This document shows positions 2,437-11,571 of a stretch of 11,654 nucleotides of DNA, one piece after another. This DNA comes from a virus. The notes beneath the pieces are model-generated. The model did no database searches. It was given only the letters and a program-made list of their open reading frames with translations, and was not told the origin of the DNA. The stretch lies in UHGV virus genome UHGV-1617644; one strand, written 5' to 3'. Both the position numbers and the translations under genes were made by a program. How positions within the stretch are numbered: position 1 is the first letter of the stretch; the number at the start of each line of letters is the position of its first letter.

Positions 2437-2789
2437 TACGCCTCCGATGTAACAGTCGTTATTCCATAAAGAGTGTCGATTTCAGCGGAAAACATGACAC
2501 GTCGGGTCGTGGTATCCAGCGTCGTATTGAAAGAGAGGATTGATTTAACGCCCTGCGTTTCGAGGATGCGCTTACGGATCGCCAGGTTGTAGGTTTCCGG
2601 CTTCTGCTTACCGAGTACGGACTGGATCCACGGAGTCCCCTCGGTGGTGTCGAGAAACCATTGCCCATACCACAATTCGAATCGCGTTTTTACCGCCTGC
2701 GCCACGGCCTCCGGTGAGTTAATCAGCCAGGTGTCATCACCGCAGCCAAAGGTGTAATCGCCATCGGCGTCTTCACGTCTGTATCGCAT
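2436..2789 (-). CDS. Baseplate wedge/assembly protein (117 aa; gpW / gp25-position equivalent)
   Basis: Translationally coupled between the spike and baseplate-J genes; size typical of gpW-like proteins. Synteny only; sequence not recognised. Confidence 0.5.
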   Translation of the reverse strand: MRYRREDADGDYTFGCGDDTWLINSPEAVAQAVKTRFELWYGQWFLDTTEGTPWIQSVLGKQKPETYNLAIRKRILETQGVKSILSFNTTLDTTTRRVMFSAEIDTLYGITTVTSEA

Positions 2790-3541
2790 CAGTTTACCCC
2801 GTCGGTACTGCTTTCACCGCGCTGAACACCACCATGAGTGTGCGTATCATCGATTGGCTTGCCGTTAGCCTTCACGCTCCCCAAAAACTCAACAGCACCA
2901 GTGATTTTTGAAGCCACACCAGAAACCACAGACCCCACCATGCCCCCCATCCAGGTTAACAGGCCATGAATGGTTACTTTCTCAGAAAAATCAGCCAGGG
3001 GGGCAACCACATCAAGCCCCCCCGGAGCGACAATTTTAATTTTCCTGGTATCAGGATTAAGCTCAAAATAGGTGCTGCCGTCGTCACTACGCAACTGTGT
3101 GGCACTGGTATTAATACCGCTAATCTTCCTAGCCTGCGACTGGGGACCGACAATACAAAACGCATCCGATAAATCATGCATTCTGTCATCGACCGGCTCC
3201 TGTATCCCGCCACTCTGCCACCAGAAATCAATACAACGATCGGCAAAAACGACAAGACACTCATCCCCGGCTTTAACCGGAAAAGTCAACGTACAGCCTC
3301 CGCCGCGCGGAAATACCACTGGCACATCCACCAGCAACGGGTAATTTTTGGTAATGCGGTTACCGTCGTTATCCTTTTCAACCGAACGGATAGCTGGCTG
3401 CACAACCGCCGTCACCGCGTCGGGATCGAATGACTGAACAATGCCAGGCAAGGCGACACGGATCTGGTTCTTTGTTGTTTCCCGTTCAGATTTGAATGTT
3501 TCGGCAAGGTCGCCGCTGCGGGTCTGGTCAGATACTGCCAT
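2789..3541 (-). CDS. Baseplate central spike protein (250 aa; P2 gpV / Mu gp45-like position)
   Basis: GGAG 8 nt before ATG; first gene of the spike-wedge-J-I-fibre block; C-terminal Gly-rich region with a THTH motif that I recall resembling the His-containing apex of gpV-type spikes. Confidence 0.6.
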   Translation of the reverse strand: MAVSDQTRSGDLAETFKSERETTKNQIRVALPGIVQSFDPDAVTAVVQPAIRSVEKDNDGNRITKNYPLLVDVPVVFPRGGGCTLTFPVKAGDECLVVFADRCIDFWWQSGGIQEPVDDRMHDLSDAFCIVGPQSQARKISGINTSATQLRSDDGSTYFELNPDTRKIKIVAPGGLDVVAPLADFSEKVTIHGLLTWMGGMVGSVVSGVASKITGAVEFLGSVKANGKPIDDTHTHGGVQRGESSTDGVN

Positions 3542-3560
3542 TTAGTAGGCTCCAGAAAGC

Positions 3561-3590
3561 AAAAAACCCGCCAGATGGCGGGTTTTTATT
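3561..3590. terminator. Rho-independent hairpin terminator, bidirectional by sequence (AAAAAA-CCCGCC-AGAT-GGCGGG-TTTTTATT)
   Basis: Perfect 6-bp GC-rich stem (3567-3572 / 3577-3582), 4-nt loop, A-tract upstream and T-tract downstream. On the minus strand it reads CCCGCC-ATCT-GGCGGG-TTTTTTGCTTT, about 20 nt after the 131-aa stop. Confidence 0.65.
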
Positions 3591-3606
3591 AATAAATCAG
3601 TTAGAC

Positions 3607-4002
3607 CTAAACGGCTACATCAGTCTTCATTTGTTCCCATTGAGAAAAAATTGTTTTTACTTCCAAGATTGATTGTTGTGCCATTGCTTTATTTATGCCA
3701 CAACTACTTAAATCATAATCAGCCTCATTCCGAGCTAACCTCTGTTGCTCAAGTTTGTAAGCCATAGATTTTAGACTTCGAGGATCATAGGGTTCCAGTT
3801 TATTTTCTCCCTTATTTTTAAGATAAGAGATAAGGCTGGCATGATGATCCCGAGTATAAGCAGGAAGACTAGTTAGATTATCTTTAATTTCATGGTAGAG
3901 AGCGTAATATGCTCGTGAAATAGCATTACGATAACCAATCTCACAATCTTCAGCAAAACAACGTTCGGCCGAAGACAAAAACTCAGAACTAGTTATAGGC
4001 AT
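3607..4002 (-). CDS. Small alpha-helical protein with HEPN-like signatures (131 aa), second gene of the cassette
   Basis: ATG at 4002 lies inside the last codons of the 256-aa ORF; weak SD AAGAG. Contains RAYYALYHE (residues 30-38, an R-x6-H spacing) and LARNEADYD (residues 89-97, R-N-x3-Y where HEPN families usually have R-x4-6-H). Assignment is from recalled motif patterns, not an HMM hit. Confidence 0.7.
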   Translation of the reverse strand: MPITSSEFLSSAERCFAEDCEIGYRNAISRAYYALYHEIKDNLTSLPAYTRDHHASLISYLKNKGENKLEPYDPRSLKSMAYKLEQQRLARNEADYDLSSCGINKAMAQQSILEVKTIFSQWEQMKTDVAV

Positions 4003-4759
4003 ATTTACACTCTTTTAATCCATTTCTTTCAACGGAAAATCTTGCTATCAGGTTACAATCATCAAGCAAATCGATCGAGCAGATTTCATCAGCAAGTCGC
4101 ATATTCATTGCAACAACCCGCTCTGGAGACGCCTTAACCACCTCAACCAAATACGTTCCACCAGACGCCCCGTTAATGTCCGCGCGATATTCAGTTGACG
4201 GGAATTCAGCCATAACTCTGTGCACAGCCAAGGCAACTTGCCTATATTGCTCTGAAGAGCACCCTGAATTTTTATAAGCTTCATCCATATCGTTAATTAC
4301 CTCCTGCAAGAAGGTTTCTGCGTCATCCCTATGCTCTTCTTCGGATAACATTTTGCAATGACGCCCTAAATACTCCACGCATTTCGATAGTTTCCCTACC
4401 AAGTACGCAACGCCGCCAGCTTTGTAAGTAAACCACTTTGTAGGAAACTTATCAGCTAAAGAATATATGTAGTAATCCAGTTTTTCGAGTAGAGAAAATC
4501 GCTCGAGAAGTTTACAAAAGATCCGTGCGAAATTAACGTCAGCATGTGGAAGGATGACCTCAAGCGACTCAATCCCAAAGAGCACCTCACCCTTAGCTAT
4601 ATAAGCCAACGCTACAAGTGCTTCAGCCATAGGAGTATGATTAGAACCATACTCCGAAACCACTTCTCGGAAAGTCCACATATCAAGTGGCTCCCCACTG
4701 TTGATTACATTAATCAACTGGTCAAAACGCTCTTCGGCTTTTAGTTTTGGTCTCGCCAC
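3989..4759 (-). CDS. Hypothetical protein (256 aa from GTG at 4759; alternatively 230 aa from ATG at 4681), first gene of a two-gene cassette
   Basis: Low-GC ORF with no motif I recognise; no nucleotidyltransferase GSxxRG...DxD motif and no CxxC zinc-finger spacing. GTG at 4759 has a weak SD; the in-frame ATG at 4681 has GGGGAG 9 nt upstream. Its 3' end overlaps the next gene by 14 nt. Confidence 0.7.
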   Translation of the reverse strand: MARPKLKAEERFDQLINVINSGEPLDMWTFREVVSEYGSNHTPMAEALVALAYIAKGEVLFGIESLEVILPHADVNFARIFCKLLERFSLLEKLDYYIYSLADKFPTKWFTYKAGGVAYLVGKLSKCVEYLGRHCKMLSEEEHRDDAETFLQEVINDMDEAYKNSGCSSEQYRQVALAVHRVMAEFPSTEYRADINGASGGTYLVEVVKASPERVVAMNMRLADEICSIDLLDDCNLIARFSVERNGLKECKYAYN

Positions 4760-4789
4760 AGTTCACTCACTACTTATTTTTTGTCAGAT

Positions 4790-4817
4790 TTTATGTTCGC
4801 GTATACAGTTTAGTCAA
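4790..4817 (-). promoter_or_regulatory. Candidate sigma70-type promoter for the two-gene cassette (-35 TTGACT, 16-nt spacer, -10 CATAAA)
   Basis: Read on the minus strand in the 173-bp AT-rich intergenic region upstream of the 256-aa ORF: TTGACT (4817-4812) and CATAAA (4795-4790). The -10 matches consensus at only 4/6; judged by eye. Confidence 0.3.
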
Positions 4818-4932
4818 TCCACATCTGATCTACTTAGTAGTTTCGCACAAAATCCCCCTTAGAAAATGAATCTCTAGATTTTACTACGAGCCCATTTCCC
4901 TGAAAAATCGAGGATTTTCTACTCTAGTGCCA

Positions 4933-5394
4933 TTAGAACCCTTTTGATTTTGCAACACGAATACCACCAGCCCAACCATTAAAATCAATCACATTACTAC
5001 CGGGGACAGGATTATTTGTGTTGAAAGCATATCTAGCACCAATTTTCCATGCTTGCGGACTAACACTAGGATCCTTTGACAGTTTTATCCACTCTTTCAT
5101 ACCGTTGTAAATATATTCCTGACAAGAATCCCGGGTTCCTTTGCGGTTGGTGTATGCGTCCAAATCATTACATTGCTGGAATGTGTTCCTGATGATGTCA
5201 GCGAAATCATCTAAGGTCATTGTAAAACGTCGCCCATTCATTGAGAAAAAAGGCTTCACAGATGCGTAATGTTGCCATTCCGTAAACTTTTGCTGCTCCA
5301 TCAGGTCGGCTGCTTTAAATTCAAACTTACCTGGTTCGGCAAAAGAAGTCGTAGAAATCAGCATCGTTATTGCAACTATCACCTGTTTTTTCAC
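4933..5394 (-). CDS. Secreted/periplasmic protein of unknown function (153 aa), accessory gene
   Basis: Classic Sec signal peptide MKKQVIVAITMLISTTSFA|EP; two Cys in the mature part (possible disulfide). GTG start 2 nt after the hub TAA with GGGGAG 7 nt upstream, so translationally coupled. Gene is visibly more AT-rich than the flanking tail genes. Confidence 0.7.
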   Translation of the reverse strand: MKKQVIVAITMLISTTSFAEPGKFEFKAADLMEQQKFTEWQHYASVKPFFSMNGRRFTMTLDDFADIIRNTFQQCNDLDAYTNRKGTRDSCQEYIYNGMKEWIKLSKDPSVSPQAWKIGARYAFNTNNPVPGSNVIDFNGWAGGIRVAKSKGF

Positions 5395-5396
5395 GC

Positions 5397-6461
5397 TTAC
5401 GCTCCCCGTTGCATTGCCAACTGGCTAGGTATATCGCTAGCCCCACGCGCTTCGCACATCATATCCATGTACCACGCCTGGCCCCTTGTGTCGCCAGTGT
5501 ACATAATCCCGCGAACAATATAAACGCCATCCGTTGCGATGCTGGCAGGCTGCGATGTGGTGCCGCTTAGCGTAATATTTCCGTCCGTGTTCTGGTCGGT
5601 GATCTGCCCACCAGCCATCGCAATATCGTTGTTCGACAACGCGGTACGATAGACGGAAGCCTGATCCAGCTGAATGAGCCCGTTAACCCGGATGTTCGGA
5701 TTAATAAGAGCGCGGACGTTTACGCCGTTGCCGATGGTCTGCTGCGGCATGCCAATAAGCCCGGTAGCACTGTTGAGCACAATCGCTTCGTGAACATATT
5801 CATTAGTCGCCACCATCTGGCGCTGACCGTCCACGAATTGCCATGTTGCGCCACATTGCCCGGCTACGTTATCCATTAGATGCCGCGTCATGCCAAAGAG
5901 CACCCGCCCCCGGGGGAATACAGTAGCAGGCATTTCAGGCGTCAGGCCTTCGGTCACACCTTTGGCTTCGAAGTCTTTCATCAGCGCACGGTTCACATCA
6001 GCGACCGTGTAACCGGCAGCCAGCGTCTGTGAGGTTATACTGGTGGCAAAAGCCAGATCAGTATCTGCTGCCTGAATCAGGACGTAGGAATCAACCGGAC
6101 TGTCTTTTCCTGTGACCGAGTAGCGAATTTCACCGCTGAAAATCAGTCCGTAGTTGCGCCCATCACTCTGGCCCACGTCCGCCGCGTCAACTTCCCGCAC
6201 TGTCCCGACGTCGCTTGCCGACACCTCCGGCGCGATACCGTCGTAACCCGCAATCAGACGCACTTTCGAAAACTCCTGCCCGGTAATTCGGTTCACAGTA
6301 TCTGCCGAAAGGTTATAAATTTTGATAGTCCCTACCCGGGACGCGCTGCTGATGTTGAACCAGTCGATCGTAAAGGTGACTTTAAAATCACTTAGCTCAA
6401 TTCCCTGACCGTTCCCGTCCACAAGCTGCAGCTCGAAATGTCTCATCCAGTTCTGTGACAT
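5397..6461 (-). CDS. Baseplate hub protein (354 aa; Mu gp44 / P2 gpD-like position)
   Basis: GGAG 5 nt before ATG; position immediately before the spike module and size fit a hub protein. Synteny-based call. Confidence 0.6.
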   Translation of the reverse strand: MSQNWMRHFELQLVDGNGQGIELSDFKVTFTIDWFNISSASRVGTIKIYNLSADTVNRITGQEFSKVRLIAGYDGIAPEVSASDVGTVREVDAADVGQSDGRNYGLIFSGEIRYSVTGKDSPVDSYVLIQAADTDLAFATSITSQTLAAGYTVADVNRALMKDFEAKGVTEGLTPEMPATVFPRGRVLFGMTRHLMDNVAGQCGATWQFVDGQRQMVATNEYVHEAIVLNSATGLIGMPQQTIGNGVNVRALINPNIRVNGLIQLDQASVYRTALSNNDIAMAGGQITDQNTDGNITLSGTTSQPASIATDGVYIVRGIMYTGDTRGQAWYMDMMCEARGASDIPSQLAMQRGA

Positions 6462-6463
6462 GC

Positions 6464-6766
6464 TTACTCCGTTGATACCAGTAAATGGCTGCGACCGCCC
6501 AGGTCAGTTTTTGTGGGGTAATCCTGTGTGTTGTCATCACAGACCACCACCAGCTTAAAACCAAGCCCCATACAGGCGTACTGCGCCAGCAGGTCAGCAC
6601 CAGTGACGAGAGGAATACCGGAGATTACCGGCTCCCCTCTGTCGTTCTGCAGGTCCATAATCCAGTACAGATCGCGCCATATGATGCTAATCCGCCAGGT
6701 GACACCACCCAGGACGATGCTGAACTGCTGGTTGTCCGCTGTCAGCGGAATTTCCTGAATTGTCAT
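6464..6766 (-). CDS. Small baseplate-associated protein (100 aa), function unassigned
   Basis: ATG overlaps the upstream stop (TAATG), G-rich SD upstream; translationally coupled between the post-TMP gene and the hub gene. Confidence 0.55.
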   Translation of the reverse strand: MTIQEIPLTADNQQFSIVLGGVTWRISIIWRDLYWIMDLQNDRGEPVISGIPLVTGADLLAQYACMGLGFKLVVVCDDNTQDYPTKTDLGGRSHLLVSTE

Positions 6767-7353
6767 TAGCCGCCCCCCAGTAATGACGCCACGTTACCCG
6801 TGATGCTTTTCAGCAGTGAAGTATCTGGAGGTTTTGTGGTTTTGTTGCCGCTGTTCTGTACCGCCGACGTGCTGGCCCCTTCCTTCATGTTGGTTTTATC
6901 CGCGACGGTAATCTGCTGTGTCCGGGAGATAATGACCTCCCTCAGGGTGAGGACGGCGGACAGGACGTTTTCGGTTGTCTTGTCCGTCGTCACTTCCAGC
7001 GCCCGGATCAACATGTTGCTGTACAGCCGTTTACCGGTTACCACATCGAAGGGGATACGGCTTTCCTGCAGATCCAGTAGCTCCTGATACGTCTGCTGAG
7101 GACTCAGGCCGAGCTGGCTGGTAGCCGTCAGATTACTGGCAAAATCCAGCAATGCGCCGCCACCGGCGAAACCAACCTCCATCACCACTTCTGACGGTTT
7201 TTTATAGGCATGATCAGCGACAGCGGCCCCGACCTCTACCGGATGCTCTGTTATTTCAAGCATATCTGTATGCTTCTCTGAAATAACAACACTGGGAACA
7301 ATCATTCCTATTTTTCTGCTCTGCTGATGAAAAAGTGTAGAGAGAATATCCAC
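6766..7353 (-). CDS. Post-tape-measure tail/baseplate assembly protein (195 aa), function unassigned
   Basis: GTG start overlapping the TMP stop (TAGTG) with GAGG upstream. Sits where Mu/P2-type clusters carry a tail-completion or DNA-circulation-like protein; no motif recognised. Confidence 0.55.
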   Translation of the reverse strand: MDILSTLFHQQSRKIGMIVPSVVISEKHTDMLEITEHPVEVGAAVADHAYKKPSEVVMEVGFAGGGALLDFASNLTATSQLGLSPQQTYQELLDLQESRIPFDVVTGKRLYSNMLIRALEVTTDKTTENVLSAVLTLREVIISRTQQITVADKTNMKEGASTSAVQNSGNKTTKPPDTSLLKSITGNVASLLGGG

Positions 7354-9362
7354 TAACCCACCCTCACCTGATTACTTCGCATGACCTGAGCATTTGCAGA
7401 CTGTTGCCGACGTGCAACCTCATTACCGACAGCGTGCGGATCTCCGCCACCGTAAATGTGGTAAGTATTTTGCTGGTTAACCTCTGTCATTTTGCCACTA
7501 ATTCCCGCCACGGCAGCCTTATTAATCAGCTCTCGAGAATAGATATTTCTTCCATTTTCATGCTGGATAATGCTGCTCATCAATGCTGACATGGTTTGCG
7601 GATCGCTCATATTCAGGGCAGCCCGGGGATCCACTCCCAGTCGTTGCGATACAGCCCTGATATACGCAGTTGTGTTGTTATTATCAGACGCAGGTGCCCA
7701 GGTAGAGATAATTTTCTCCACACTGTTTATTCCCCGTCCGGCGTACAGCATTAACTGACGAGCAAGAGCCCGTAATCCATCAAAAGCAGTTTCAAATCTG
7801 GCAAATCGCCCGCCCGGGCGTTCAAGAGAAGCCCCTGCCTGACCAGCAAAATTAAGGTTTCCCGGATTGTTATTCCGTTCTCCTCGTTTCGTAGCCTGTG
7901 CATATTGTTCCGGCTCATCATCACCAAACCAGCCGCGTACCGTCCGGCCCACACTGCGGGGATCGAATCCCCAGTGCTCTTTAATCCAGTCGGCAGTACT
8001 GTTAGCGCTGTCTGTAACCATCGGCATCGCTGACGGATTTTCGCTGCCCTGATTAAGTATCTGTTTGCCGATGCTGACGGCATCAGCCCAGCGGCCATCT
8101 TTGATAGCGTTGAGCAGGTCGGCGATCATGTTCAGCATTTTGCTGAATTCGCCCATCTGGTCGATGAAGTTGCTGAAATCCCACTTCAGGGACCATGATT
8201 TGGGGTCAATATTGAGCAGTTTCGCCAGCGCTTTCACCAGTTCATTAACAGACCCTTTCAGGTCACGAACCATCTTCAGCGCGGCATCGACCTCCGGCTT
8301 CCACTTGCCCCAGTCAATCAGGCTGTCGCCGCCTTCCTTCCAGGTCTGATAGTCCTCCCACAGAAGGGCAATCCCCGCCGCCAGCGCGGTAATGAGGCCA
8401 ATCGGCGACATCCAGAACGTACTGTTCAGAATGCGCAGCGCAATCGTCAGCGCGCCAAACAGCGAGATGAGCTCCCGCGTTTGCTTATCCAGCGATTGCC
8501 ACCAGGTGATAAGGCTGGATGTTCCCTCAATTAGCCTGAAGAACAGCCGCCCGATGATGTCTCCGAGCGCCAGAATGCCTTTTATGGCTTTCGTCAGGGT
8601 CTGCTCGATGCGCGGGAAGTTATCGAGGATGTGGCGGCGCAGTGTGTCCAGCGAACCCGCCAGACCACCAGCAAGATTAGAGCCGATTTTGTCACGGGCC
8701 ATGCCTGCCATCGCGCCGAACTCGCGCAGGGAGGTCATAAATTTGTTGGAGCTTCTGGCCGCCTCGTCAGCATTGAAGCCGATAGCTTTCGCCATTGCGC
8801 TGTACTGCCCGGAGAAGCCACCCACACCCCGGCGCATCGCCATAAGGGTATTTTCGTCAATGCCCAGCATCTGCGCATACTGGTTAGCCCGGTAATACGG
8901 CATGCCGCTGAGCTTCTGGCCTACACCTGTAAAAATAGAGGCCATGTCACGCATGTTACCGCTGGCATCCCGTGTCTGTACCCCTAGGCGATTCAGAAAT
9001 CCCTCTGCACCGGGATTGTTACGAATAAACCGGGAGAGGCTTTCCAGAGAAGAGCGCGCAGCGTCTGCACTGCCGCCAACCTGCGAAACCGCATAGCCAA
9101 TAGACTGAATTCCATGGACCGTCGCGCCGGTGCGCTGTGACGCCCAGTAAAGATTATCCAGACCGGAGGCGATCTTAGCCGTGAAGGCCACCACGGACAG
9201 TGCAGTTCCTTCGACGGCCAGCCCCATTTTGATGACATTTGCAGTTGTACCGGCGAGGACAGAACCGAACTTTTTCGCTCCTGCATCATCCACACTGAAG
9301 CCAAGCGAGACGAGGAAATCTTTAATAGTTTCAGCGTTCATTATCCTATCTCCATTTCTCAA
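7353..9362 (-). CDS. Tail tape measure protein (669 aa by track; likely true start at the ATG at 9341)
   Basis: Longest ORF, directly after the chaperone/frameshift pair; Ala/Gly/Ser-rich with hydrophobic central segments (e.g. LISLFGALTIALRIL..., IGLITALAAGIALLW). GGAG lies 8 nt before the second ATG (MNAETIK...), so the first 7 codons of the track ORF are probably not translated. Confidence 0.85.
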   Translation of the reverse strand: MRNGDRIMNAETIKDFLVSLGFSVDDAGAKKFGSVLAGTTANVIKMGLAVEGTALSVVAFTAKIASGLDNLYWASQRTGATVHGIQSIGYAVSQVGGSADAARSSLESLSRFIRNNPGAEGFLNRLGVQTRDASGNMRDMASIFTGVGQKLSGMPYYRANQYAQMLGIDENTLMAMRRGVGGFSGQYSAMAKAIGFNADEAARSSNKFMTSLREFGAMAGMARDKIGSNLAGGLAGSLDTLRRHILDNFPRIEQTLTKAIKGILALGDIIGRLFFRLIEGTSSLITWWQSLDKQTRELISLFGALTIALRILNSTFWMSPIGLITALAAGIALLWEDYQTWKEGGDSLIDWGKWKPEVDAALKMVRDLKGSVNELVKALAKLLNIDPKSWSLKWDFSNFIDQMGEFSKMLNMIADLLNAIKDGRWADAVSIGKQILNQGSENPSAMPMVTDSANSTADWIKEHWGFDPRSVGRTVRGWFGDDEPEQYAQATKRGERNNNPGNLNFAGQAGASLERPGGRFARFETAFDGLRALARQLMLYAGRGINSVEKIISTWAPASDNNNTTAYIRAVSQRLGVDPRAALNMSDPQTMSALMSSIIQHENGRNIYSRELINKAAVAGISGKMTEVNQQNTYHIYGGGDPHAVGNEVARRQQSANAQVMRSNQVRVG

Positions 9363-9971
9363 TGCGCCGCTGGTTATCCGCTTTTACCGCCAGATGGTCA
9401 TTCAAGAGAGCAATGTCGTACAAATCGACAGAGCCATCTTTAAGTGCTGTATAAGGAATTAACCCGGCGTCAACCGGATTGAGAAGGTAGGACAGCCCGT
9501 CCGGCAGGCTGTTAAACGTCAGCCCTGTTGCAGACTCTGCGTCGTGCTGGTAAGGGGTGTAGGCAAAAAATTTCCCAGCGAATCGGCGACCACCCGCGCC
9601 ACCAGCTGCAGCATGACCAGCAGGTCAATATCATCAAACATCAGTTCGCCCTTGGTAAATACCGGCACCCATCCGTCCATATGACGCCGCGACACCACCG
9701 CAAGACAGGGATGAATAATCGCTTCGGTGTCATCTTCGGTCAGGGAAGACAGTTCCTCAGCGATACGCGGGAGCATGGTTTCAAACACCGGTTTTAACTG
9801 CTCGAATTTCACGGTTTCGATTTTGCCGTCAGCAGGCAAACGGGAGCGAATGCTCCCGAAATCTGACATCATTCCCGCCAGTACCGGCAGAAGTTTGCGG
9901 GTCACTTTCAGCTGGTCAAAAACGCTGAGTTTTGCCACGCGATATTTCACGCCTTTAATTTCGAATTCCAT
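9346..9971 (-). CDS. Predicted -1 frameshift fusion product of the chaperone (GT / E+E' analogue, about 208 aa)
   Basis: Hand translation: the -1 frame is open for 75 codons from the slippery site to TAG at 9348-9346 (KFFAYTPYQHDAESATGLTFNSLPDGLSYLLNPVDAGLIPYTALKDGSVDLYDIALLNDHLAVKADNQRRIEKWR); the +1 frame hits TAA almost immediately. This ORF has no ATG, so it is absent from the supplied ORF track. Confidence 0.55.
9519..9971 (-). CDS. Tail assembly chaperone, short in-frame product (lambda gpG / P2 gpE analogue, 150 aa)
   Basis: Lies between tube and tape measure; GGGGAG 9 nt upstream of ATG; a slippery heptamer sits near its 3' end and an open -1 frame runs into the TMP start (see frameshift features). 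Confidence 0.7.
   Translation of the reverse strand: MEFEIKGVKYRVAKLSVFDQLKVTRKLLPVLAGMMSDFGSIRSRLPADGKIETVKFEQLKPVFETMLPRIAEELSSLTEDDTEAIIHPCLAVVSRRHMDGWVPVFTKGELMFDDIDLLVMLQLVARVVADSLGNFLPTPLTSTTQSLQQG
9564..9576 (-). promoter_or_regulatory. Programmed -1 ribosomal frameshift slippery site (mRNA GGGAAAUUUUUUG)
   Basis: In the chaperone frame the codons are CUG GGA AAU UUU UUG, so G_GGA_AAU fits the X_XXY_YYZ pattern, with overlapping A_AAU_UUU and U_UUU_UUG heptamers. As I recall it, lambda G/GT uses the near-identical G_GGA_AAG. Confidence 0.55.
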
Positions 9972-10425: not shown

Positions 10426-11571
10426 TTAGCGAACAACGTTAATCTGTACGTCAGCGTAATGAACCGCGCCTGCAAGTTTTATTGCAGCCTGAATCACCGG
10501 AGCCTTACGGGCTTCACGTTCTGATTGTGCCTGTTCATCCAGCGGCTGGGCGTATACGTAATAACCTTTGGGCAGCGTGTCACCTGATGACAACTGCCCA
10601 AGGTTGCCACCGTTCCATACGCCCGGAGCAATCAGTCCATTCTGAACAGCCTGATCCAGTGATTTTTCTACATTTGATAACAGTCGGGTAATACCGGCTT
10701 CAGTCTGGGGAACTTTCGTGGTGCTGGTATAAAGCAGGTTATAGAGGTTGGTCTGCACATAATTCTGTAACCAGTCCAGGCCGTGGCGTTCATCAAAGAA
10801 ATCGCCGTTAGCCATCACTCCCTGCTGGAGGATAGCTGTATCATTCTGGTAGTACACGAACACATTGCAGTTTTTTGCATCAAGTGCCGATGCCTGGCTG
10901 ACTGTCAGTGTTTCATACCCGACACCCGGCTCCTGCTTAAACTTGAGCGTAATCGCGGTATTACTGCCATTGAAATTAACCGTGAATGCCCGGCCAAATG
11001 CAGATAACGCAGCGTATTTATTACCCGATGAATACTGAATAAAACTGCGTGAATATCCGGCGGTTTTCAGTTTTGATGCCAAATCATCGCTGGATGCAGT
11101 CTGCAGGCATTTCTCATCGCTTGTCGTAATCGCCAGAATACGGCTTACAGAAGAGGATTCGATCGCCGCAGCCACTTTCAGCCAGTCTGCATCCGGAATA
11201 TCTTCATCGTCTGCAATCCCCAGCCCATACCATGAAGTATAATCGAGCATGGCATTCACAGCCTGCTCCAGCGTCTCAGGCGTGGCCTGTTCGCTGTCTC
11301 CCTTCGTTTTCACCCAACGACCAACAAAAACCTCCTGAGGTTTCGGTGATTGTGAGAAAAACACCTGCGCAGCCTTATATTCTGGTGATTCCACGCCAAA
11401 ATCTTTTCCAATATCTTCCGCGGCAGAATAACGACGAATGCGCTCACTTACCGGAATGATTGTGGACGGGCCGAGAATGAGTAATGCACCAAAATTTCGC
11501 CCTGATGCTGCACGCGGCGACATGATCACATCAACATTAACAACGTTTGATACAGGCAAGCCCTGTGCCAT
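10426..11571 (-). CDS. Tail sheath protein (381 aa)
   Basis: First gene of the sheath-tube-chaperone-TMP series; GGAG 8 nt upstream of the ATG; size fits a contractile sheath subunit. Assigned by synteny, not by a motif. Confidence 0.6.

Follow-up and report, generated by a model that had tools for sequence, protein, structure and literature searches.

A conserved terminator-type hairpin between the baseplate hub and central spike genes of a Q-associated phage tail operon, and its probable role in closing a moron slot

The tail module of UHGV virus genome UHGV-1617644, an 11,654-nt stretch of DNA read as one strand and referred to below as the window, carries a variable cassette between its baseplate hub and baseplate central spike genes, and this cassette is followed by a G+C-rich hairpin and U-tract placed immediately upstream of the spike gene. 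Judged by its sequence the hairpin is a real and strong Rho-independent terminator, and it belongs to the tail operon of a lineage whose tail module is common to SEN34/Brunovirus. The explanation that we consider likely is that a resident intrinsic terminator closes a slot for accessory genes (morons) between hub and spike, insulating the genes behind it in the lysogen, and that the antiterminator Q reads through it in lytic growth. An initial annotation of this DNA had recognized a strong terminator that the expression of the downstream genes must overcome by readthrough or antitermination, and this part of it stands; its further proposals, that the hairpin came with the insertion and that the tail cluster might be defective, do not.

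All of the long open reading frames (ORFs) of the window lie on the minus strand, to which the following features also belong. The last cassette gene, orf131 (3607-4002), ends with a TAG stop codon at 3609-3607 and the spike gene (2789-3541) starts with an ATG at 3541-3539, leaving a gap of 65 nt (3542-3606). The hairpin with flanking A- and T-tracts that had been noticed in this gap was confirmed at 3587-3561, where the RNA reads AAAAACCCGCC-AUCU-GGCGGGUUUUU followed by U. The stem-loop proper (3562-3587; AAAAACCCGCC / AUCU / GGCGGGUUUUU) begins 19 nt past the orf131 stop codon and consists of an 11-bp stem with six G:C pairs and a 4-nt loop. Its U6 tract (3561-3566), five of whose six residues also pair with the upstream A-tract, is followed by GCUUUCU and then, 7 nt past the U-tract, by the GGAG of the spike ribosome-binding site (RBS; 3550-3553), which is separated by 8 nt from the spike ATG. 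The gap holds the sequence features of an intrinsic terminator: a G+C-rich stem, a loop of 3-8 nt, and a U run directly after it on the sense strand, the whole lying past a stop codon and outside coding sequence.

The hairpin alone has a folding energy of -16.9 kcal/mol, and its 91-nt context on the minus strand gave a fold z-score of -4.9, with none of 200 shuffled sequences folding as well. The plus strand likewise folds (z = -3.5) and provides a U5 tail, so that the element looks bidirectional in the window. Among 17 terminator-like matches found in the window it was clearly the best, the other 16 having at most eight pairs and no clean T run; because this total is only a modest excess over shuffled sequences (10.4 +/- 3.3), the case for a terminator rests on the single site and not on enrichment. 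Rfam returned no family at the gathering score for the hairpin region, and a known RNA family was rejected on this ground, the sub-threshold matches being without exception the terminator ends of small RNA and leader/attenuator models. In the minimum-energy fold of the window the terminator is enclosed by a pairing between the last codons of orf131 (GCCGUUUAGG, 3600-3612) and the start region of the spike gene (CCUACUAAAUGGC, 3539-3550); this pairing is available in 22 of 114 distinct upstream regions, mostly of one cassette type, and for that reason it was rejected as a conserved feature and is probably incidental. As the initial annotation had stated, the gap offers no obvious promoter: no sigma-70-like match occurs on the minus strand from 3542 to 4780, which spans the gap and the cassette genes leading to the spike. 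A promoter within the gap was also rejected on the ground that its A/T-rich stretch, lying ahead of the hairpin, could at best start transcripts that contain the terminator. As this strong terminator-type hairpin is followed by no promoter, expression of the spike, wedge, J and fibre genes would require readthrough or antitermination.

Relatives of this region were collected as 160 loci with spike homologues, from 80 viral contigs and 80 bacterial contigs (one genome per species) with 5-kb flanks, and the hub and spike genes were located in each with the hub as anchor. A block composed of hairpin, U-tract, GGAG and ATG precedes the spike in about 130 of the 160 loci (103 of 120 distinct upstream sequences), down to a spike identity of 46% (46-50% in the most distant), and was found in E. 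coli, Salmonella, Citrobacter, Enterobacter, Yersinia, Pantoea, Erwinia, Serratia, Rahnella and Photorhabdus. The distance from hub to spike in these relatives ranges from 21 to 2817 nt. Salmonella phage SEN34 and the E. coli phages vB_EcoM-606R2 and 683R1 carry other genes in the slot and the same block before the spike ATG; no such block was found in Yersinia phage YP3, which has the same hub and spike genes. The idea that the hairpin had been brought by the insertion is contradicted by these data, given that the same block accompanies other cargo and also occurs in at least seven loci free of cargo. It had been proposed to check whether relatives lacking the insertion also lack the hairpin; when this was done, relatives without the cassette of the window proved to keep it.

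In an alignment of 58 distinct upstream sequences (A1), conservation is complete or at least 90% throughout the stem CCCGC/GCGGG and the GGAG (G39 and G42 invariant, G40 nearly so), and of the six T columns four are invariant, a fifth is at least 90% conserved and the sixth varies; free variation is seen in the loop and in the 5' A-tract. Since the U-tract is conserved and the A-tract is not, the conserved polarity is that of the tail genes. The proposed stem pairs in 86% of the alignment cells versus 35-58% with a slid partner, and compensatory changes on both sides were found in five of nine pairs, which none of 500 shuffles reached; the stem variants include CCCGC/GCGGG, CCUGC/GCAGG, GCCGC/GCGGC and CCCACC/GGUGGG. 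RNAalifold recovered the same 5-bp core with a covariation term of only -0.2, small because the stem sequence itself is highly conserved. Covariation is thus moderate and was rejected as proof of the structure; it is the slid-partner and shuffle controls that support the pairing.

The U-tract and GGAG are tightly coupled in all relatives, at a distance of 0-8 nt, and in loci without cargo the intergenic region is just the hairpin, U8, GGAG and a U-rich spacer. Both features would suit an element for RNA stability or translation, in which the stem-loop guards the 3' end of the upstream transcript or a processed 5' end of the spike transcript, the U-tract and GGAG enhance spike translation, and termination is incidental. 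We regard this as quite improbable, however, because an invariant U run abutting a G:C stem marks a terminator and not a stability hairpin, because the sub-threshold Rfam matches are all terminator modules, and because the same design follows cargo at other junctions of a Burkholderia relative. In the latter, phage vB_E192a (L167, spike 55% identical), strong terminators at 2107-2128, 5362-5381 and 7614-7633 directly precede the hub, wedge and tail-protein genes, the first two following inserted genes and the third a structural-protein gene. A terminator directly before the next core gene is thus a recurring design in this tail-module family.

The hairpin is also specific to its site. The pattern CC[CT]GC-N3-9-GC[AG]GG-T4+ was found 130 times at the site and about nine true times elsewhere in 1.53 Mb of loci, a further 20 matches elsewhere being the same hairpin read on the opposite strand, and a generic scattered repeat was rejected on these counts. 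Among relatives with 97-99% identical spikes, homology stops at the hairpin, the stem and everything 3' of it being unchanged, and the loop differs between most cargo types. Two loci carry the hairpin twice: L111 has two tandem terminators (4925-5000), of which the upstream one retains the E. coli-type 3' flank GCTTTCT and looks like the trace of a cassette imported with its own terminator, and the Yersinia locus L106 has an identical hairpin before the hub and before the spike (3184 and about 4960). An end of homology at the hairpin, loops that follow the cargo type, and tandem or duplicated copies could all point to a DNA-level cassette junction, with the stem acting as a recombination site, attC-like or as a microhomology anchor, for the exchange of cargo. 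This we hold to be very improbable: neither the slot nor its immediate surroundings contain an integrase or transposase, the left border of the slot has no matching hairpin, the stem is a generic strong-terminator sequence, and ordinary mosaic recombination in the conserved flanks produces the same pattern more simply. An integron-type cassette system was likewise rejected, as neither a recombinase nor an integrase or transposase was found in or beside the slot. Two further observations concern the surroundings of the hairpin. In the Izhakiella locus L149 it is found before the hub only (3987). In eight loci (L046, L070, L102, L109, L126, L144, L153 and L164) from different genera, with cargo not all alike and often with an antisense gene of about 120-140 aa (cluster 6), a palindrome, CCTGAYATTTGATCAGTAA, is found about 20 nt ahead of the hairpin; it could represent an operator, or else the terminal part of a short conserved ORF.

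When ORFs were called in the 123 distinct slot sequences and their products clustered, about 60 protein clusters resulted, some 55 of them cargo, with 92% of residues in the sense orientation. At one and the same position the slot content is present, absent or different among relatives, the complete cassette of the window being found in only three of the 307 E. coli genomes that have the flanks. EPEC E2348/69 carries a version that is 85% identical. The base composition of the cassette also departs from that of its neighbors, with a GC content of 0.36-0.46 over 3600-5400 (orf153, orf256 and orf131) versus 0.50-0.57 in the flanking tail genes. A moron, according to the definition of Juhala and Hendrix for HK97/HK022 as summarised in PMC3594210, has its own promoter and terminator and is hence expressed from a repressed prophage. 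In the window a sigma-70-like promoter is predicted on the minus strand at 4788-4817 (TTGACT, 18 nt, TAAAAT; 10 of 12 consensus positions), about 30 nt upstream of the start of orf256, and diverged versions of the cassette in other loci have TTGAC-N17/18-xAxxxT at the same place; promoter-like matches in the whole window numbered 12 where 14.4 were expected, which is not above chance. The predicted promoter and the low GC content fit the published definition of a moron, and the cassette is followed by a terminator, as that definition also has it. Since this terminator is homologous to that of cargo-free relatives, it is better called the slot's terminator. The cassette resembles the lambdoid morons in being extra DNA of lower GC content between tail genes, with a predicted sigma-70-type promoter and a Rho-independent terminator in a Q-dependent late operon, but differs from them in that its terminator is not only cargo-borne: the block of hairpin, U-tract and RBS is fixed across genera, even where there is no cargo.

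Evidence for the regulatory context comes from complete genomes. E. coli PS1Thumoskin9 has a complete prophage that matches the window with 100% identity. In it, the repressor, Cro-like and replication genes are followed by a gene for an "antiterminator Q family protein" and, past a 400-nt gap, by the genes for holin, lysozyme, spanin, terminase, head and tail, which share one strand; an invertible fibre segment comes after the tail genes. This prophage adjoins tadA, yfhB and yfhH, as does the one deposited as vB_EcoM-606R2. The Q protein (L006, 12749-13183) matches PF06530 above the cut-off (E = 1.1e-50), and between Q and holin, 277 nt past the Q stop codon, lies a tR'-like terminator (L006, 13460-13481) with a 9-bp stem and T7, placed like the tR' of lambda. 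Besides this one, the spike-proximal hairpin is the sole canonical terminator on the sense strand in the approximately 24 kb between Q and the fibre genes. The layout is that of a lambdoid Q operon, with Q directly upstream of the lysis and virion genes and a tR'-like terminator between. Q is also annotated at the head of a co-directional late operon in SEN34 (SEN34_60), vB_EcoM-606R2 and YP3, so that all four complete genomes examined with this tail module encode an upstream Q, and three of them, YP3 being the exception, have the hairpin. The late operons of lambdoid phages are switched on through antitermination by the product of the last early gene, and they contain intra-operon terminators (PMC8022706). 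SEN34 forms turbid plaques, has myovirus morphology and lambda-like regulation (PMC5261728), and bears the same hairpin.

The same evidence bears on the suggestion that the tail cluster is decaying or has been domesticated and that the cassette is a polar insertion in it. In favor of this is a strong terminator that no promoter follows, but we find this reading scarcely credible: every tail ORF of the window is intact, the prophage context is complete and includes Q, the arrangement is identical in three E. coli genomes and related ones occur in 307 of 5426, and the plaque-forming SEN34 has the same hairpin. Conserved in the tail operon and most likely overridden by Q, the hairpin is no sign of a crippled tail cluster.

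From the anatomy and conservation of the hairpin, the diversity of the cargo, the presence of Q and the layout of the operon, we infer that the cassette promoter is active, that termination takes place in the lysogen, and that Q-modified polymerase reads through. In the lysogen, the cassette would be transcribed from its own sigma-70-type promoter (4817-4788) into an RNA of about 1.2 kb ending at the hairpin, 7 nt short of the spike RBS, where other non-antiterminated transcripts would likewise be stopped; the spike, wedge, J and fibre genes would therefore be silent. Upon induction, Q would modify RNA polymerase at a late promoter just downstream of the Q gene. The Q-modified polymerases of lambda, 82 and 21 ignore intrinsic terminators, and a polymerase modified in this way would pass both the tR'-like terminator and the spike-proximal hairpin, so that the tail genes would be made without polarity. 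With a resident terminator already in place, cargo bearing a promoter would be insulated automatically upon insertion upstream, which would help to explain why the site is a hotspot.

Several observations weigh against this explanation. The hairpin is retained in at least seven loci, from five genera, that have no cargo and in which only hairpin, U-tract and Shine-Dalgarno sequence lie between the hub stop codon and the spike ATG (gaps of 39 nt in L156, 40 in L165, 38 in L154, 57 in L157, 66 in L121 and L123, and 86 in L143, a locus of Salmonella enterica s1 at CP191473.1, 2682296-2693048). The hairpins there are shorter, with 6-8-bp stems, energies of about -9 to -18 kcal/mol (centroid hairpins) and long U runs. 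Insulation from moron promoters cannot then be the sole role of the hairpin, unless cargo was lost in these loci; if they arose in another way, the hairpin must have some independent role, and this is the strongest caveat. It might then terminate a part of the transcripts, block spurious transcription, or act in RNA stability or translation. Some cargo is antisense, for example in the 694-nt slot type, and the terminator cannot be closing those genes. Reading of the Q-holin intergenic sequence (L006, 13183-13587) identified no late promoter or Q-binding element, and the presence of Q was checked in four complete genomes only, the 160 loci having flanks of 5 kb. The hairpin is not universal. 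In L098, L100, L101, L149, L150 and L152 the hub and spike genes overlap or abut, with no hairpin between them; among loci with a short gap, the hairpin is absent from L124 and L158 and lacks a U-tract in L159; and the cargo-bearing loci L058, L063 and YP3 lack a proper terminator. L110, L103 and L119 contain only a small secreted-type protein gene and the hairpin.

A tentative alternative, to which we give some weight, is that the unit of hairpin, U-tract and RBS would be an ancestral, selected module of this myovirus tail operon, whose presence made the hub-spike junction a hotspot for accessory and defence genes across the Enterobacterales. Such a module could serve for programmed partial termination, or could hold back transcription that is not antiterminated. 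The cargo-free hairpins, the L111 tandem and the L106 duplicate are compatible with this idea, in which a resident insulator recruits cargo that need not supply a terminator itself.

The cargo-free loci, where there is no moron to insulate, together with the constant junction and sense orientation of the hairpin, would also be expected of a built-in attenuator, at which a fixed fraction of late transcripts ends despite Q, lowering the dose of spike, wedge and fibre relative to sheath, tube and tape measure; this would be a designed form of the polarity proposed in the initial annotation. Partial termination is among the possible roles listed by Casjens et al. (PMC8022706), and the P22 ant moron affects the dosage of tailspike (PMC2629481). 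We nevertheless think an attenuator unlikely. There is no obvious stoichiometric step from hub to spike, both being low-copy baseplate parts, and relatives with overlapping hub and spike genes do without the hairpin. The resistance of Q-modified polymerase to intrinsic terminators, established for lambda Q, Q82 and Q21, speaks against it as well.

Taken as a whole, the situation is that of a classical moron or intra-operon terminator. The nearest specific analogue is the "ant moron" of P22 (immI region, 5' of gene 9), which is likewise a variable region of the late operon directly upstream of a host-recognition or puncturing gene (PMC2629481, PMC8022706), and which late transcription must cross in order to reach the gene downstream; this variable moron, directly 5' of the tailspike gene, affects the frequency with which late transcription arrives there (PMC2629481, a secondary source). 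The gene at stake is a myovirus central spike here and a podovirus tailspike in P22, homologues of ant, arc and mnt are absent here, and control of expression in P22 by repressors and an antisense RNA differs from the system of the window. Unexplained predicted Rho-independent terminators have been described within the single-promoter late operon of phage L and P22-like genomes, for which partial termination or the stopping of spurious, non-antiterminated transcription was suggested, and Casjens et al. call the question open (PMC8022706). The hairpin shares with those cases its position within a late operon; unlike them, it is tied to an accessory-gene hotspot by about 130 loci, by covariation and by the cargo-free cases. 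P2-like phages and P4 satellites contain defence hotspots (Rousset et al. 2022, PMC9122126) that resemble the slot in being variable, in lying between conserved phage genes and in holding many small alternative cassettes, several of them defence-like, although the phage family is another one and the slot described here is inside a tail operon. Our literature searches turned up no description of a hub-spike hotspot, which is not proof of absence; the new part is descriptive, a widely conserved and apparently undescribed hotspot with a conserved terminator-RBS border.

For annotation this means that a strong terminator midway along a tail operon is no ground for assuming decay if the phage has a Q-type antiterminator. 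The hub-spike junction is a rich hotspot, with roughly 55 cargo protein clusters in the sampled loci, and it can be mined in a simple way by means of its conserved terminator-RBS border. Related phages of three kinds, having both cargo and hairpin, only the hairpin, or neither of the two, also offer a clean natural system for studying the role of terminators within late operons.

The commonest cargo in the slot is the pair formed by orf256 and orf131 and its counterparts, TPR-like and HEPN-like respectively: about a quarter of the distinct slots (31 of 123) encode a protein of 243-273 aa followed by an overlapping one of 123-142 aa, and a similarly organised pair occurs at another tail junction of the Burkholderia phage L167 (943-2104). 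In the window orf256 (3989-4759) overlaps orf131 by 14 nt. Its product, which combines TPR-like helical repeats with a small alpha/beta domain at the C-terminus, had no match in Pfam, NCBIfam or PADLOC; the homologue search returned only "hypothetical protein" entries, and the AlphaFold2 model (pLDDT 89) had TPR proteins as its best PDB fold matches, none with E < 0.001. The product of orf131 belongs to phrog_5176, for which no function is given, and is weakly HEPN-like (Pfam HEPN, E = 0.0023, below the cut-off; PADLOC HEPN_IX, E = 0.003), with no sequence match in PDB. Searches with the cassette gave no significant match in PADLOC and none by sequence in PDB, and a known defence system was rejected on the former ground and on the weakness of the TPR fold matches. 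A HEPN-MNT toxin-antitoxin pair was also rejected, orf256 having no NTase or other Pfam match and a TPR-like model. We regard the pair as a candidate system of anti-phage or toxin type.

The first gene of the slot, orf153 (4933-5394), starts 3 nt past the hub stop codon, has a GC content of 0.39-0.42, and encodes a protein with a signal-peptide-like N-terminus (MKKQVIVAITMLISTTSFA/EP...). A small protein with such an N-terminus nearly always occupies this position (first ORF after the hub, about 109 loci), although in most relatives it belongs to an apparently unrelated family of about 113 aa that is conserved from E. coli to Photorhabdus. These small first-slot proteins gave no family match and may have a superinfection-exclusion or envelope-acting function.

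On either side of the slot the window continues the tail module, again on the minus strand. The sheath gene (10426-11571) is followed by tube and chaperone genes, the tape measure gene (7353-9362), a baseplate protein gene, the plug gene (6464-6766) and the baseplate hub gene (5397-6461; phrog_196, E = 3e-88), the conserved upstream border of the slot. The spike, first core gene 3' of the hairpin terminator, encodes a 250-aa protein that matches PF18352 (E = 1.7e-44), has a GpV apex motif and is named "membrane-puncturing spike protein" in RefSeq; it is followed by genes for the wedge, a J-like protein (1237-2436) and a DUF2612 protein, and by the start of a fibre gene. Between chaperone and tape measure (9363-9518) there is a G+C-rich hairpin without a T run (9480-9461), in a gap that also contains a small DUF6889 ORF according to the RefSeq annotation, and this is probably the usual frameshift or extension region of the chaperone gene and not a terminator.

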